From assembly GCF_044324875.1 (NCBI RefSeq), contig NZ_CP172185.1: DNA of 64,000 bases, one strand, 5' to 3'. Shown here piece by piece: positions 13,070 through 20,099 of the stretch. This DNA is from Escherichia coli (GTDB lineage: Bacteria; Pseudomonadota; Gammaproteobacteria; Enterobacterales; Enterobacteriaceae). How positions within the stretch are numbered: position 1 is the stretch's first letter; the number at the start of each line of letters is the position of its first letter. The notes under the pieces were generated by a model that did no database searches, was not told the origin of the DNA, and worked only from the letters and a program-made list of their open reading frames with translations. Position numbers and translations under genes: made by a program.

Positions 13070-14140
13070 TTATTTACCCCAGTTAAGGGCCGGGGTGTGG
13101 ACCGGGGCGTCCCAGAGTGCCAGCGTTTCGTCATCAACTTTCAGTAAGGTGATTGAGAAACCGGTCATATCCAGTGAGGTGCAGTACGCGCCAATTAAAT
13201 TACGTTCGATAGTCAATCCTGCTTGCTGGCAACGTGTGGTCAGGCGGTTATAGACGCCGTATAGCTCAGAAAGCGGAGTTGCGCCAAGATTGTTAACCAG
13301 CGCAATCACCCGATCGCCAGACTGGAGCGGTTGCTTAGTTTGTGGTTCTTCCTGCCAGCTGCCTTGTTGATAATCCCAGAAACGCAAAGTGCGATGGTAT
13401 GAGCCATTTTCCAGCAGGGTGTCGAACATTTCATCGACGGTTTGATCAAGGGAAGAGAAGGGACGGCGGTCAATACCTGGCTCACCATGAATGCCGACGC
13501 CAAACTCCATCTCATTGTCCGCCAGGGTAAAAGAAGGTTTGCCCGCGGCAGGAACGGTACAGGCACCGAGAGCAATACCTATTGAGTGGCCTTGATTATT
13601 CAACTTACGCCCCAGTTCCGCACAGGCGTCCAGTGAGTCGCCACGCTCCGCCGCTGCGCCTACGAGTTTTTCAATTAATACGGTGTTGGCAACGCCGCGC
13701 CGCCCGGCGGTATAAAGACTGTCTTTTACTGCAACGTCGTCATCAATGACCACAGTGGTCACTTTTACGCCGCTATCGTGCAGTAACTCGGTTGCTGTTT
13801 CGAAGTTAAGAATATCGCCGGTGTAATTTTTGATAATCAACAGTACACCTTCGCCGCCATCAATTTGCATGGCGCATTCAAAGATTTTATCGGGCGTCGG
13901 TGAGGTGAAAATTTCGCCCGGACAGGCCCCCGAAAGCATCCCCTGACCGATATAACCACAATGCATCGGCTCGTGTCCGCTACCGCCACCCGACAGCAGG
14001 GCGACTTTTCCTGCAACGGGGGCATCAGCTCGGGTGACATACACCGGATCCTGGTGCAGTATCAGCGATGGATGCGCTTTCGCCAGTCCTGCCAGTTGTT
14101 CGTCCAGTACGTCTTGCACATCATTGATCAATTTTTTCAT
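13070..14140 (-). CDS. dhaK: Dihydroxyacetone kinase dihydroxyacetone-binding subunit DhaK
   Basis: ORF 13070..14170; the start at MKKLINDVQDVLDEQLAGL… gives a 356-aa DhaK. Confidence 0.92.
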   Translation of the reverse strand: MKKLINDVQDVLDEQLAGLAKAHPSLILHQDPVYVTRADAPVAGKVALLSGGGSGHEPMHCGYIGQGMLSGACPGEIFTSPTPDKIFECAMQIDGGEGVLLIIKNYTGDILNFETATELLHDSGVKVTTVVIDDDVAVKDSLYTAGRRGVANTVLIEKLVGAAAERGDSLDACAELGRKLNNQGHSIGIALGACTVPAAGKPSFTLADNEMEFGVGIHGEPGIDRRPFSSLDQTVDEMFDTLLENGSYHRTLRFWDYQQGSWQEEPQTKQPLQSGDRVIALVNNLGATPLSELYGVYNRLTTRCQQAGLTIERNLIGAYCTSLDMTGFSITLLKVDDETLALWDAPVHTPALNWGK

Positions 14141-14367
14141 TATTTTGCTCCAGCAATTACGGTAGGGCATGGATGATGTTCAACGACACGGCGACCACTG
14201 ACTGCCGATGAATCCATTGTGCATCAGGCAAGGGAAAAGAAAATTAGCCCAAATTATGTTTCATAGTGAAACATATTCTTTAATGAATGTTCCATATTGA
14301 AACTTTTACGTGTATTAATACTTAAAATTGCGAGCCGGAACACCTTTTGTCATAAGGGATGCGGGAT

Positions 14368-16287
14368 ATGAGTAGCGCTTTTAACAACGATGGTCGGGAC
14401 ATATCTCCCTTAATTGCAACCTCCTGGGAGCGATGCATTAAGCTGATGAAACGGGAGACATGGAACGTACCACACCAGGCCCAGGGCGTGACATTTGCGT
14501 CTATTTATCGGCGTAAGAAAGCGATGCTGACGCTCGGGCAGGCTGCGCTGGAAGATGCCTGGGAATATATGGCACCGCGAGAGTGTGCGCTGTTTATCCT
14601 CGATGAAACCGCCTGCATTCTCAGCCGTAATGGCGATCCGCAAACCTTGCAGCAGCTAAGTGCACTGGGATTCAATGACGGCACGTATTGCGCCGAGGGA
14701 ATTATTGGTACTTGTGCGCTATCGTTAGCGGCTATCTCTGGTCAGGCCGTGAAAACGATGGCCGATCAACATTTCAAACAGGCACTCTGGAACTGGGCCT
14801 TTTGTGCAACGCCGTTGTTTGACAGCAAGGGCCGATTGACGGGAACAATAGCGCTGGCGTGTCCGGTTGAGCAAACTACCGCAGCTGATTTGCCGTTGAC
14901 GTTGGCAATCGCCCGAGAGGTCGGTAATTTACTGCTGACGGACAGTTTGCTCGCTGAAACTAACCGTCATTTAAATCAACTTAATGCCCTGTTAGAAAGT
15001 ATGGATGATGGCGTGATTAGCTGGGACGAGCAGGGTAATTTGCAATTTATCAACGCCCAGGCGGCGCGGGTCTTGCGCCTTGACGCGACGGCAAGTCAGG
15101 GAAGGGCAATCACTGAACTCTTAACGTTACCCGCCGTATTGCAACAAGCAATAAAACAGGCACATCCGCTCAAACACGTAGAAGCAACCTTTGAAAGTCA
15201 GCACCAGTTTATTGATGCGGTGATAACCCTTAAACCGATAATAGAAACGCAGGGAACCAGCTTTATTTTGTTGCTCCATCCTGTGGAACAGATGCGGCAG
15301 TTAATGACCAGTCAATTAGGAAAAGTCAGCCATACTTTCGCTCATATGCCACAAGAGGATCCGCAAACCCGCCGCTTGATTCATTTTGGTCGCCAGGCGG
15401 CGCGCAGTAGCTTTCCTGTCCTGCTTTGTGGAGAGGAGGGCGTGGGCAAGGCACTGCTAAGTCAGGCAATTCATAATGAAAGCGAGCGTGCAGCGGGGCC
15501 TTATATTGCCGTCAATTGTGAGTTATATGGTGATGCGGCGCTGGCGGAAGAATTTATTGGTGGCGATCGCACGGATAATGAAAATGGCCGTCTGAGTCGG
15601 CTGGAACTGGCGCACGGCGGCACGCTGTTTCTTGAAAAGATTGAATATCTGGCGGTGGAGTTACAGTCTGCTTTGCTTCAGGTTATCAAGCAGGGTGTTA
15701 TCACGCGACTGGATGCGCGGCGATTAATACCCATTGATGTCAAAGTGATTGCCACAACGACCGCGGACCTCGCAATGCTGGTGGAACAAAATCGCTTTAG
15801 TCGCCAGCTGTATTACGCGCTGCATGCATTTGAAATTACCATCCCGCCTCTGCGTATGCGGCGTGGCAGCATTCCGGCGCTGGTGAATAACAAATTACAC
15901 AGTCTTGAAAAACGCTTCTCTACGCGGCTGAAAATTGATGACGATGCCCTCGCTCGCCTGGTTTCCTGTGCATGGCCTGGCAACGATTTTGAACTTTACA
16001 GCGTCATCGAGAATCTTGCTCTGAGTAGTGATAACGGGCGCATTCGCGTCAGTGATTTACCTGAACATCTGTTTACCGAGCAGGCGACAGATGATGTCAG
16101 CGCCACCCGCCTTTCCACCAGTCTGTCATTTGCGGAAGTTGAAAAAGAGGCAATTATTAACGCAGCCCAGGTCACAGGCGGTCGCATTCAGGAAATGTCG
16201 GCTTTACTTGGAATCGGCCGCACTACGCTGTGGCGGAAAATGAAGCAACATGGCATTGATGCAGGGCAGTTTAAGCGCCGGGTATGA
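14368..16287 (+). CDS. dhaR: Sigma-54-type transcriptional activator of the dha operon (GAF-PAS-AAA+-HTH)
   Basis: ORF 14359..16287; the ATG at 14368 has the better-spaced RBS; AAA+ motifs (GEEGVGKALLSQAIH, GAFTGA-like region) and a C-terminal HTH; divergent from dhaK. Confidence 0.92.
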   Translation: MSSAFNNDGRDISPLIATSWERCIKLMKRETWNVPHQAQGVTFASIYRRKKAMLTLGQAALEDAWEYMAPRECALFILDETACILSRNGDPQTLQQLSALGFNDGTYCAEGIIGTCALSLAAISGQAVKTMADQHFKQALWNWAFCATPLFDSKGRLTGTIALACPVEQTTAADLPLTLAIAREVGNLLLTDSLLAETNRHLNQLNALLESMDDGVISWDEQGNLQFINAQAARVLRLDATASQGRAITELLTLPAVLQQAIKQAHPLKHVEATFESQHQFIDAVITLKPIIETQGTSFILLLHPVEQMRQLMTSQLGKVSHTFAHMPQEDPQTRRLIHFGRQAARSSFPVLLCGEEGVGKALLSQAIHNESERAAGPYIAVNCELYGDAALAEEFIGGDRTDNENGRLSRLELAHGGTLFLEKIEYLAVELQSALLQVIKQGVITRLDARRLIPIDVKVIATTTADLAMLVEQNRFSRQLYYALHAFEITIPPLRMRRGSIPALVNNKLHSLEKRFSTRLKIDDDALARLVSCAWPGNDFELYSVIENLALSSDNGRIRVSDLPEHLFTEQATDDVSATRLSTSLSFAEVEKEAIINAAQVTGGRIQEMSALLGIGRTTLWRKMKQHGIDAGQFKRRV

Positions 16288-16386
16288 AAGACAGAAACGA
16301 TTTCTGATACATCAGAGTGATCTGTATTTCATTCCGGCGCACGCTAACAATTTTCAGCATCGTTTAAGGGCTTGTCTATCCCGCAC

Positions 16387-19254
16387 TTAAAAGCTGAATC
16401 GATATCCTCCGTTGACTTGCTTCTGATCAAAGAGGTTACCCTGCGTGTAATCCGCTTCGAGATAGAATGTGTGCTGTTTGTTATACTGTGCACTGACTCC
16501 CACGCCGTTATTCCAGCCATTACCTTTGAAACTGTACTTCTCCCGGGAGTTGTTCAACAGATATTCGGTATCCCCTGAAAACTCGCGGATAGCGCCAGTC
16601 TTCACATAGACATTCAGCTGGCTGTTGCCTGCGGTGATGTCATATCCCAGTATCATGCTGGCACGCCCCAGCAGCGATTCGTAGTGATTCAGATGTATAT
16701 TGAGGCCATTACTCGCCTTCATAGCCATCTCATTCTGGTGGCTGTATGTGAGCTGGGTTTGCGGCTCTATATAGAACCCATAACCAGTAGGGGTCAGGTT
16801 GAACCTCTGCCCGGCTTCCAGGGCGATACTCATTCCATTCGCAGTGCCGTTGGCATTAACGCCGTTGTTCTGACTGTCCAGTACGTGGAAACTATTTTTC
16901 TGGCGTGATGCTTTTACAACGAGATCGCTGTAAAAACCGCTGTGTGCCATGTAACTGGCGTACATTCCCATGTAGTCTGAACGTGCGGTACCGTCGCCTC
17001 CGCTATAGTCCGGCGATGCATGTGTTGAGCCAATATACAGACCGACATACAACGGCATTTCATCAGAGAGACGTTTATCCCCACCAAACTGGATACCGCT
17101 GTAACCCATGTCAAAGCCGCTCAGTTTGCCACTGGCAAAGGAGTCCAGGCTTCCCCCATAACTGCGCAACCAGATATTACCGTCTTTACTCTGATTTCGC
17201 AGGTCACCCATCCGTTGCATCAGCGTACGGTTTTCAACATAGTTCAATAAGTAACCGACATTGAGATAATTGCCGCCAGCATCTGCAGTCGTGGTGGGTT
17301 TAGGCGTGGGAGCGGGGGCAGGCGTAGGATCGGGGTTGACTATGGGAGGCTGAGCGGGAGCTGGTGTGGGTTCAGGATTAGGAGTCGGTTCCGGAACTGT
17401 CCCGGAAGCGTAAAGCTCCCAGTTAGTGCCATTTTTACGCACATCGTACAGATATCCCCCCAACTCAACCTGAGAAGACGCGCTGAACGAGGCCGCACCG
17501 TCAGTGGTTTTTACCACTGTCAGAACTTCATTTCCCGTTGTGGCCTCGCTGCCCTGGTTGCGGATAGCCAATACGTGATTACCAGCACTACTCCCGCTGA
17601 TATTCAATAAATCCCCTTTATTATTAACGCCATTACCCTCGCCAACAACATCAGCACGCATAATAAAGGTACTGTTACCGCTCAGGTTCTCTACGTTTAA
17701 TGTGGTAAATGTGCCGGCAGTTGACCCGTGGCTGGCAAAATCGACAGTTGAATGGCTCAGCGCCAGCGTGTCGAGATTAGAATTACTTGTTACGTTCCAG
17801 ACGCTGTTATTCATTGCAACGTCCAGTTTCCCGCCATTGACATTATCGCTGAGGGAAGAACCTGTCCAAACCGACCCAGGGTGCATATCCAGATTGATTA
17901 GCCCACCTTTGGAAAGAACGCTACCGTTGATAAGCATACGACCCGAGGCGTTGATGCGGCTGGCGGCATAACCATCGTCATGTTGCGTTGCGATGGCCAT
18001 CTGGTCGGGTGTACTCATATCAATGACCAGATCGCTCGTGAGGTCGATCTGGCTGTTGGTCATGGCATAAATTCCCCTGGCTCCTGCCGCGCCGGTGATA
18101 GCCAAACTGTCTCCGGTTATTCTACCGCCGCTGAGCGCCCACAAACCCAGCGCCAGACTGCCATTACGATCAACCGTAATATCGGTATTTTGCATGTTGA
18201 CAACAGCCGTTGCCGTCTGGGCTGAGGCACCATAAGAACCGCTGGAAAAGATGCTGTTTCGTTGCGCTGCCGTGCCAGAAAAATTGATTGTCGCGTCTGA
18301 ACCACTGGTTACGAGGCCACCGCCCTGCGCGGAAGAAATATGGCTATCAGCACCGATAGTGGTTGTACCACCACGAACTTCGACGCCATTTGCCGCGGCT
18401 CCAGTTACATCAACAGTGAGTGCATTCGCGCTCACCTGGCCAAAGCTCCAGAGGCCGTGTGCATTATCGCCATTGGTTTTAATGGTACTGTTTGTTCCGA
18501 GATCGACAACAGAGTTTTTCTGTACGTTTATCCCCATGGCGCTGTAGCCCTGAACATCGATTGTCAGGTCTGTCGCCGTAAAACGCGCAGCACCATTGGC
18601 GTTATTGCCGTTGAGACCACCGATATAAACACCTGTACTTCCATCGGTCTTGATTTTACTTCCGCTTCCAAGATCGACACTGGTGCCATAGTCATTGATT
18701 GTTAGGCCTATACCGTTCGAGTTTTCAATGGTGAATTGAGTGGCTGTTAGTGTTGAGCTATGTCTAATAATGATGCCGTCATCGTTACTCTTAATGGTGC
18801 TGCCTGTGCCTAAGTCAGCATGGGTATAGTCACCAATTAAATTAATGCCGATGGCAGAGGTTTGACCAACAACATCTACTGTAAGTCGGTTAGCTGTCAG
18901 GGAGCTGTTCTTGCCCTGAATAATGATTCCCTTTGCATATCCAGAGGCGTCGTTGACATTGACGGTGACATCATTACCCAGGTTGATATTGCCAGGCGTG
19001 TTTCCTGCTGGGGTCATTACACCATAGAGGTTTCCTGATGGATCGGCGGTATCTCCTGTAATTCTGTCACCATCATTAATAGTAATATTGGTGCCATTTT
19101 GACTTCCTAAATCAGCAGCTATCAGCAGGGGGGAAAAGATAATTGCATTCAAACCAATAGCGCCATATTTTATCAGTTGAATGGAGGGCGAACGGATTTT
19201 TAATTCAGCGAGACGATCGGCTTTGGTATTCCCATTGTGTTGTTTGATGCCCAT
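16387..19254 (-). CDS. ycgV: Autotransporter (type Va) adhesin-like protein
   Basis: 955-aa ORF with a signal region, a long Gly/Thr/Asn-rich beta-helical passenger, a Pro/Thr-rich linker (PEPTPNPEPTPAPAQPPIVNPDPTPAPAPTPKPTTT) and a C-terminal beta-barrel ending …GGYRFSF. Confidence 0.88.
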   Translation of the reverse strand: MGIKQHNGNTKADRLAELKIRSPSIQLIKYGAIGLNAIIFSPLLIAADLGSQNGTNITINDGDRITGDTADPSGNLYGVMTPAGNTPGNINLGNDVTVNVNDASGYAKGIIIQGKNSSLTANRLTVDVVGQTSAIGINLIGDYTHADLGTGSTIKSNDDGIIIRHSSTLTATQFTIENSNGIGLTINDYGTSVDLGSGSKIKTDGSTGVYIGGLNGNNANGAARFTATDLTIDVQGYSAMGINVQKNSVVDLGTNSTIKTNGDNAHGLWSFGQVSANALTVDVTGAAANGVEVRGGTTTIGADSHISSAQGGGLVTSGSDATINFSGTAAQRNSIFSSGSYGASAQTATAVVNMQNTDITVDRNGSLALGLWALSGGRITGDSLAITGAAGARGIYAMTNSQIDLTSDLVIDMSTPDQMAIATQHDDGYAASRINASGRMLINGSVLSKGGLINLDMHPGSVWTGSSLSDNVNGGKLDVAMNNSVWNVTSNSNLDTLALSHSTVDFASHGSTAGTFTTLNVENLSGNSTFIMRADVVGEGNGVNNKGDLLNISGSSAGNHVLAIRNQGSEATTGNEVLTVVKTTDGAASFSASSQVELGGYLYDVRKNGTNWELYASGTVPEPTPNPEPTPAPAQPPIVNPDPTPAPAPTPKPTTTADAGGNYLNVGYLLNYVENRTLMQRMGDLRNQSKDGNIWLRSYGGSLDSFASGKLSGFDMGYSGIQFGGDKRLSDEMPLYVGLYIGSTHASPDYSGGDGTARSDYMGMYASYMAHSGFYSDLVVKASRQKNSFHVLDSQNNGVNANGTANGMSIALEAGQRFNLTPTGYGFYIEPQTQLTYSHQNEMAMKASNGLNIHLNHYESLLGRASMILGYDITAGNSQLNVYVKTGAIREFSGDTEYLLNNSREKYSFKGNGWNNGVGVSAQYNKQHTFYLEADYTQGNLFDQKQVNGGYRFSF

Positions 19255-19547
19255 ACCACTCCTATATAGTACCCAGGCTATGGGTCTATGGATTTTGTCA
19301 TTTTGTTTAAGTCAATGAATAATATCCTCTTATCATCATGATATTTGTATGGTGCTATCATGATGAGCTGCTCTGAGAATAATTCTCTATTACCGGGCAA
19401 AATCAGGAACACAGGAATTAATATATATTTAACATCCCCCTTACAAAGGTGAGTTTAGATCGAGTTATTCCCTAAGTTGTCGTTACTTATTCCAATTCGT
19501 TACAATGAATATGACAAAAACATTACAACAAACAGCGGTTAAATAAT

Positions 19548-19802
19548 TTGGTGAATATTTTTGGTAATAATCCTAATTGGTTATGGGATTTTCGCTTGAT
19601 GTATCTGCATAACAAAAACAATATGAGCCATTTTTGCATTACTAATAAGAAAAAGCAAAAAACATCGATATTCATTTTTGATCAATGGATTTTCTGGCAT
19701 ATCGTTATTATCGTGATACTGGTTATCATTTTCATCTTGCCAGGATCGCACGTAATCACGTTATTCGGGGATTTTATCTGCGGGATATTACCCTTCAGGT
19801 AA
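19548..19802 (+). CDS. Hypothetical small hydrophobic protein (84 aa) in the AT-rich ycgV-ychF intergenic region
   Basis: ORF-track entry only; the product has a long hydrophobic stretch (IFWHIVIIVILVIIFILPG). No obvious RBS and a very AT-rich context, so it may not be expressed. Confidence 0.2.
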   Translation: MVNIFGNNPNWLWDFRLMYLHNKNNMSHFCITNKKKQKTSIFIFDQWIFWHIVIIVILVIIFILPGSHVITLFGDFICGILPFR

Positions 19803-20014
19803 GTCCTTTTCTCGCCAGCATATTGGAGCGTGATCAATATTGATCAGCTGTAAAAAGGTGTCTGATGTGCAGTGGAACACAAACTTACGTTATCTCATTG
19901 CTAATGAGATATCCCTCATCTGAACACTTATGTCTTTAATTATTCTCGTGGTTCACTATAGGCAATAAGCACAAAAGTGTAGGATGTTATAAGAATGGTT
20001 AGGACTCGGTGAAA

Positions 20015-20045
20015 TGAAAAATCCACGCAATTGCGTGGATTTTAT
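20015..20045 (-). terminator. Intrinsic terminator downstream of ychF
   Basis: Perfect hairpin ATCCACGC-AATT-GCGTGGAT (20021-20040) flanked by an A-run and a T-run; lies ~55 nt past the ychF stop. Confidence 0.75.
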
Positions 20046-20099
20046 ATACTTTTGCGCTCTTCATGAGATTTAGCGAAACCTCTTGAGACAACAAATTAA

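Follow-up and report, generated by a model that had tools for sequence, protein, structure and literature searches.

The ycgV locus

The window analysed here is a stretch of 64,000 nucleotides (nt) of Escherichia coli DNA (RefSeq assembly GCF_044324875.1, contig NZ_CP172185.1), and at 16387..19254, on its minus strand, lies a coding sequence of 955 codons plus a stop codon (16387-16389) that we identify as ycgV. According to the list of open reading frames (ORFs) and the translation, the frame is open throughout and its sole stop is the terminal one, as an earlier note on this DNA had stated; by our own arithmetic, a frame of 955 codons would be open by chance with a probability of about (61/64)^955, or roughly 1e-20. 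A Shine-Dalgarno element, AGGAG, can be read at 19259..19263, 4 nt to the 5' side of the ATG (19252-19254), and orthologues that are as little as about 60% identical keep this start position, their N-termini reading MGIK, MDIK, MDIN or MNIN. We put a probability of about 90% on the reading that this is an intact chromosomal ycgV whose product is a classical (type Va) autotransporter, an adhesin of the beta-helical, pertactin-like type. The parts of the gene described below, and its upstream region, are given for the minus strand.

The name YcgV, which the earlier note had given from the sequence, was borne out by comparison with K-12. The 2 genes are of the same 2868-bp length and 98.4% identical, with 46 nucleotide differences and no insertions or deletions, and their products share 938 of 955 residues (98.2%, or 17 substitutions, over 100% of the length). 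RefSeq E. coli genomes label the gene ycgV, and the copy in strain GMF054 is 99.9% identical to that of the window. On one side the gene is flanked by dhaK and dhaR and on the other by ychF and pth, in the order dhaK-dhaR-ycgV-ychF-pth that is also that of K-12. It was the full-length high identity, together with the conserved dhaR-ycgV-ychF position, that placed the gene in the YcgV orthologue group. Codon differences from K-12 comprise 26 that are synonymous and 17 that are non-synonymous, a ratio which, as a rough guide, is consistent with ycgV being under overall purifying selection.

Predicted architecture of the protein

We used profile searches and an AlphaFold2 model to assign the parts of YcgV. 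The model was run on an alignment of 42 YcgV family sequences, to which all homologue counts below refer and which contains about 110 invariant columns; it has a mean predicted local distance difference test score (pLDDT) of 84.1 and a predicted template modelling score of 0.68. Its layout runs from an unstructured N-terminus (aa 1-44) through a solenoid (approximately aa 48-616), a disordered segment (aa 620-651) and a helix (aa 655-679) to 12 strands (aa 693-954). The model was also searched with Foldseek against the PDB, and the template modelling (TM) scores that we cite are target TM scores. At E<=0.01, the Pfam matches to YcgV were just Pertactin, Autotransporter and one low-complexity match, and the closest relatives of known structure by sequence in the PDB were Vag8 (E 1e-24) and BrkA (E 5.5e-23), with EspP, Hbp and pertactin also found. 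The type Va assignment is drawn from a barrel, a helix preceding it, a passenger and an N-terminal signal peptide, the last recognised from sequence features and conservation. The full type Va architecture that the earlier note had described was thereby upheld, since PF03212 and PF03797 are matched over their full lengths and TIGR01414 from 2 to 432 of 432, and since the AlphaFold2 and Foldseek results agree with them; the domain search gave a complete Pertactin/autochaperone domain and a complete barrel, where a truncated or absent barrel would have spoken against an intact gene.

The C-terminal translocator, aa 693-955 (16390..17178), is a predicted 12-stranded outer-membrane beta-barrel. 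PF03797 matches aa 694-935 over profile positions 1-255 of 255 (E 3.8e-37), and the NCBIfam model TIGR01414 matches aa 513-955 (E 4.5e-106). The count of 12 strands was obtained by manual grouping of the DSSP strand elements of the model over aa 693-954. Foldseek matched this part to the beta-domains of EspP, Hbp and BrkA with TM scores of 0.81-0.90, and the protein ends in GGYRFSF, complete to the final aromatic residue. The alpha-helical segment at aa 655-679 (17218..17292), which would be expected to occupy the pore of the barrel, aligns with the helix of EspP and BrkA and with their RMGDLR motif. Within it, the cleavage residue of EspP, Asn1023, aligns with Arg676, a column that holds Gln in 36 of the 42 homologues. 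Because the Asn1023 equivalent is Arg676, autocleavage of the kind found in serine protease autotransporters of Enterobacteriaceae (SPATE) is not expected for YcgV on its sequence, and we set self-cleavage of this type aside; Pfam also detected no protease domain in YcgV.

The passenger, aa 48-616 (17407..19113), was recognised from the model, from Foldseek and from its composition as a putative right-handed beta-solenoid. It has short strands throughout, with pLDDT mostly above 90, and it matches pertactin P.69 (1dab; E 2e-11) with a TM score of 0.57. Its C-terminal part, aa 494-615 (17410..17775), is a pertactin-type C-terminal passenger domain, or autochaperone, that is matched by PF03212 over profile positions 1-120 of 121 (E 1.9e-37); it aligns with residues 398-534 of the pertactin chain and has been assigned to a defined autochaperone cluster (PMC5767081).

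A repetitive, Gly/Thr/Asn-rich passenger had been claimed from the sequence, and the claim held as to composition (G 14%, S 11%, T 10.5%, N 10%) and only weakly as to repetition. Tandem Repeats Finder detected no DNA tandem repeats in the passenger, and a self-comparison by BLASTP gave no matches at E<=1e-3. The best autocorrelation lag, 31 aa, reached only z of about 3. A single degenerate motif of 39 nt occurs 3 times, at spacings of 171 and 141 nt; relative to the reference copy, the other 2 have identities of 64% and 72%. Repetition in the passenger is structural, as solenoid rungs, rather than sequence-based.

Between passenger and helix, translation and composition delimit a Pro/Thr-rich linker, TVPEPTPNPEPTPAPAQPPIVNPDPTPAPAPTPKPTTT, at aa 619-656. 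It occupies nt 17287-17400, close to where the earlier note had placed it (approximately 17290-17400). Its 38 residues include 16 Pro and 8 Thr, or 42% Pro and 21% Thr (38% and 19% if aa 616-657 are counted), and a pLDDT below 50 at aa 620-651 predicts that it is disordered. Its flanks are fixed in all 42 homologues, with the autochaperone ending in WELY..SG and the helix beginning with ITTTADAG. The linker is of low complexity in these proteins, varies in length from 20 to 133 aa and ranges in content from PxP repeats to PADEQ-type repeats. It is also polymorphic within E. coli, in which there is a 961-aa allele with 6 additional aa at this place, and residue 646 is E in the window allele and A in K-12. 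On account of the fixed position, the freedom of sequence and length and the predicted disorder, we infer that the linker may serve as a stalk, or spacer, of variable length immediately outside the barrel.

The N-terminal signal-like region

The first 47 aa (19114..19254) constitute a putative long Sec signal peptide, as judged from sequence features, conservation and the model. An n-region (aa 1-29, with 6 K/R and 2 D/E) is followed by a hydrophobic core (aa 30-47; Kyte-Doolittle 11-mer maximum of 2.45 at aa 37-47) that is broken by N36, S41 and P42, and cleavage is predicted at IAA|D. In the model, aa 1-44 have pLDDT below 50 and lie outside the fold. The junction, ...AA|(D/V)xGSQ, is conserved: A46 is Ala in 40 of the 42 homologues and A47 in 37, and S51 is invariant. 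In the Pantoea homologues, a short signal peptide of the classical type leads up to this junction. The Citrobacter, Morganella, Leminorella and Pragia homologues keep both the start position and the AxA junction, and about two-thirds of the family (these 4 genera and E. coli) retain the length and start of the 47-aa segment.

Because the start position and the junction are conserved, and the short Pantoea peptide ends at the same site, we conclude that the 47 aa are probably a genuine, atypically long Sec signal peptide. The signal region noted earlier is, by these observations, present in the form of a hydrophobic core and a conserved AxA; it is atypical in its length of 47 aa and in its lack of a Pfam match. 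An extension of the ESPR type was ruled out, PF13018 being unmatched at E<=10; this domain is present in 2 distant relatives (P0086 and P0087).

The upstream region and expression

The 845-bp region between ychF and ycgV (19255..20099) has, by the GC profile, a GC content of 33-39% and is presumed to be a regulatory region with a putative promoter. Window positions 19257-19380 correspond to the published promoter probe of ycgV that is bound by YbdO; one primer of that probe could be placed at 19361-19380 with 2 mismatches, and the other, the reverse primer, lies directly against the ATG. In an avian pathogenic E. coli (APEC) strain, YbdO binds the ycgV promoter just upstream of the ATG and represses ycgV by approximately 3-4-fold (PMC11681634). 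Promoter-like (sigma-70-like) sites upstream of the gene were not above chance, with 5 found and 7.6 expected from shuffled sequences, and an adhesion or biofilm phenotype has been described upon induction of ycgV (PMC9110714). Taken together, the induction-dependent phenotype, the repression by YbdO and the AT-rich upstream region without promoters above chance suggest that ycgV is usually kept low and is poorly expressed by default. The link from an intact gene to a surface phenotype is therefore weak, and the earlier suggestion that intactness points to such a phenotype was, in view of the induction and YbdO results, overstated.

From these observations we lean, by a small measure, towards a gene that is intact and yet cryptic, that is, transcriptionally repressed and making no contribution to the surface phenotype of this strain under ordinary conditions. 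The AT-richness upstream is typical of silenced surface-protein genes, and H-NS may have a role in it; no strong sigma-70-like site was found upstream; and, in addition to repression by YbdO and the phenotype on induction, selection for adhesion in fim-deleted K-12 yielded mutations affecting ycgV (PMC10117834). However, ycgV transcripts are measurable in APEC, and change by the approximately 3-4-fold given above with YbdO, so that silencing is incomplete at least there (PMC11681634), and the positive selection reported for ycgV implies that the protein is exposed often enough for selection to act on it (PMC9110714). A cryptic state would complement, and does not exclude, the identification of the gene as an intact autotransporter adhesin gene.

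Several other candidates in this region were rejected. An Rfam scan around ycgV gave only 2 sub-threshold Leu_leader matches, at 19927-20085; they score 31 bits as compared with a gathering score of 50, fall on the two strands across the terminator hairpin of ychF and were judged to be chance. The intrinsic hairpin in question (20018-20043) belongs to the sole terminator that was detected in a scan of the ycgV region, that of ychF. An 84-aa ORF at 19548..19802 on the plus strand, with a TTG start in AT-rich intergenic sequence, goes unannotated in the nearest genomes and is likely to be spurious. A 16-nt inverted pair flanking the gene (16377-16392 and 19772-19787), considered as a sign of a mobile cassette, was at chance level: we estimate that chance alone would yield about two 14/16 inverted matches over 3.8 kb, and nine pairs like it were reported.

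The intergenic length is 845 bp in the window and 768 bp in K-12. A 75-bp segment of the window, 19744-19818, is missing from K-12 and from many K-12-like genomes; equal intergenic length suggests that GMF054 may also carry it.

Population context and the ychF-dhaR interval

We used 5426 complete E. coli genomes to place the window allele in context. DNA of ycgV was present in 4118 of these, with at least 80% coverage in 3935, and about 24% were without the gene; the entire ychF-ycgV-dhaR locus was found in 3931 (72%). Of 28 full-coverage rows sampled systematically, 3 carried a disrupted ycgV. Coverage counts and this sample together give a rough figure of approximately 65% of complete genomes in which ycgV would be intact, which makes this the majority state. 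The earlier note was correct that pseudogenisation and strain variability occur, and they do so at this very locus; its view that an intact copy is worth remarking was overstated, intact being the commonest state.

Disrupted alleles are of several kinds. In O157:H7 strain NE 1169-1 (L003:4001-5751), nt 1631 of ycgV is fused to a remnant adjoining dhaK, and a deletion has removed all of ycgV past this nucleotide (aa ~544), including the barrel, as well as the whole of dhaR. Two more sampled genomes have the same O157:H7 deletion, while at least one other O157:H7 genome, that of strain F8492, retains the full locus. Other disrupted alleles have IS1 insertions or IS1-associated deletions, or single-base and two-base frameshifts that are annotated as pseudogenes. 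The protein database holds large clusters of a barrel-frameshifted 867-aa form and of an N-terminally truncated 716-aa form, and a single 877-aa sequence with an in-frame deletion of 78 aa in the passenger.

The interval between ychF and dhaR (16288-20099 in the window) is variable, with the ycgV cassette occupying it in about 72% of complete genomes. Strains that lack ycgV have a 404-bp segment in its place (L005:1802-2205) that encodes a 58-aa lipobox protein, MKKTFTFSLLAIVFASLLSAC..., and in one sequence type 131 isolate (L006:1-6957) the interval also contains a retron Ec67 reverse transcriptase/endonuclease, an ABC-three-component (ABC-3C) defence system and IS1. Because the 404 bp are unrelated to the cassette, we rejected a deletion scar as the origin of the ycgV-less state and regard the interval in these strains as an alternative segment, not a simple deletion. 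The ychF-dhaR interval looks like a swap site, taken up by the ycgV cassette, by an unrelated small lipoprotein gene, or by the latter with a retron/ABC-3C island.

With regard to the neighbouring genes, the ORF list begins dhaR at 14359 (14359-16287, plus strand, 642 aa), whereas RefSeq dhaR is of 1920 bp (639 aa), and dhaK (13070-14170, minus strand) has a longer N-terminus in the list than the 1071-bp RefSeq gene. These mismatches in length are the ordinary start-codon ambiguity of a mechanical ORF list.

Discussion

Published work associates YcgV, in K-12, with adhesion. Initial adhesion and biofilm formation have been attributed to YcgV, along with YfaL and YpjA, in a citation of Roux et al. 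2005 (PMC3796261), and reviews place YcgV with the self-associating autotransporters (SAATs) in the phylogenetic Group 4 adhesins, link it to biofilm and describe it as a putative SAAT that awaits characterisation (PMC9289746, PMC10058404). Also, the C-terminal unit of YcgV displays cargo on the cell surface if it is supplied with a signal peptide (PMC13101318).

A sequence of events that follows established knowledge of type Va secretion would accommodate these reports and the predicted structure. The 47-aa N-terminus would act as a long Sec signal peptide, cut after IAA47, as its sequence and conservation suggest. If the fold is a guide, BAM, the barrel assembly machinery, would then insert the 12-strand barrel in the outer membrane, and helix 655-679 would sit in its pore. 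The passenger would be exported with its C-terminus first, so that aa 494-615 would fold first and nucleate a beta-solenoid of approximately 570 residues. Outside the barrel, the disordered Pro/Thr segment at aa 619-656 could hold the solenoid off the membrane surface, and the passenger, with Arg676 in place of the Asn1023 of EspP, probably remains attached. Once expressed, the exposed solenoid would, according to the literature, promote adhesion and biofilm formation.

Several points weigh against reading the gene as that of a pertactin-like adhesin. What YcgV adheres to, and how, has yet to be characterised, and it has no published structure (PMC9289746); YcgV of this particular strain is known from its gene sequence and predicted structure alone. 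At residue 164 the window allele carries R, against G in both K-12 and the nearest strain, although this column varies within the YcgV family. The segment aa 1-70 matches no Pfam family, ESPR included, even at E<=10. A SignalP 6.0 probability of 0.47 has been published for YcgV, in a paper that regards the protein as having no dependable signal peptide (PMC13101318, 2026). Finally, there is the lack upstream of promoter-like sites above chance.

The low SignalP score, the description of YcgV as being without a recognisable signal peptide, the failure of the N-terminus to match ESPR or another Pfam family and the interruption of its hydrophobic core by N36, S41 and P42 could all be reconciled with a disguised pseudogene, in which the ORF is open and the protein is not exported because its N-terminus is no working signal peptide. 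We give this very little credence: start codon position, core and AxA junction are conserved down to 45% identity and align with the short signal peptides of Pantoea, the remainder of the protein is constrained to the extent of the approximately 110 invariant columns, and the adhesion and biofilm phenotypes that reviews attribute to ycgV imply export (PMC9289746, PMC3796261). It is equally improbable that the passenger serves in immune evasion (serum or complement resistance) as in Bordetella Vag8 and BrkA, and not in adhesion, for although these 2 proteins are the best sequence matches in the PDB, the similarity is confined to the autochaperone and barrel (aa 480-954), with the functional passenger giving no more than 12 bits to Vag8, and the published work ties YcgV to adhesion and biofilm (PMC9289746, PMC3796261).

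Of our identification of the gene as an intact ycgV, the principal consequence is correct annotation: the window holds a complete copy of a common and already known E. coli adhesin gene, and the strain is genetically equipped for YcgV-mediated adhesion or biofilm formation should ycgV be derepressed. Specialists in autotransporters may find interest in the conserved, non-canonical long signal peptide, in the putative Pro-rich stalk with its hypervariable length and in the presence of ycgV in a variable interval. It is a distinctly speculative extension, which we think rather unlikely, that the 47-aa N-terminus represents a distinct and undescribed, non-ESPR class of extended autotransporter signal peptide and, separately, that the ychF-dhaR interval is a swap site; if the former were true, the extended peptide could tune targeting or slow export, which would explain predictor scores near 0.5.

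Comparison with known systems

YcgV of K-12 (b1202; WP_001334788.1) shares with the window protein its 955-aa length, its dhaR-ychF position, its domain order and the position of its linker. Among the 17 substitutions between the 2 (window residue, position, K-12 residue) are E646A in the linker and, near the signal-peptide junction, Y30F, L49T and N53Y.

In comparison with the SPATE proteins EspP and Hbp, the helix and barrel are superposable on those of YcgV (TM scores of 0.81-0.84), whereas YcgV is without a protease passenger and has Arg676 for the Asn1023 of EspP. The SAATs Ag43, AIDA-I and TibA resemble YcgV in belonging to the same phylogenetic group and in being biofilm-associated (PMC9289746, PMC10058404). 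They differ in that YcgV is without a detected AIDA-type repeat family, and the NCBIfam model for the AIDA-I family YfaL/EhaC scored only 13.6 bits on YcgV as compared with a cut-off of 1459; moreover, Ag43 carries the ESPR extension and YcgV is without one.

A further parallel is with pertactin P.69, BrkA and Vag8 of Bordetella. Barrel identity to these proteins is only about 25%, the N-terminal passenger gives no more than 12 bits to Vag8, and the functions differ, theirs being host-cell adhesion and complement resistance. Yet YcgV and the Bordetella proteins share a beta-helical passenger that ends in a PF03212 autochaperone, a Pro-rich stretch ahead of the translocator, a helix followed by a 12-strand barrel, and an RMGDLR-type motif.

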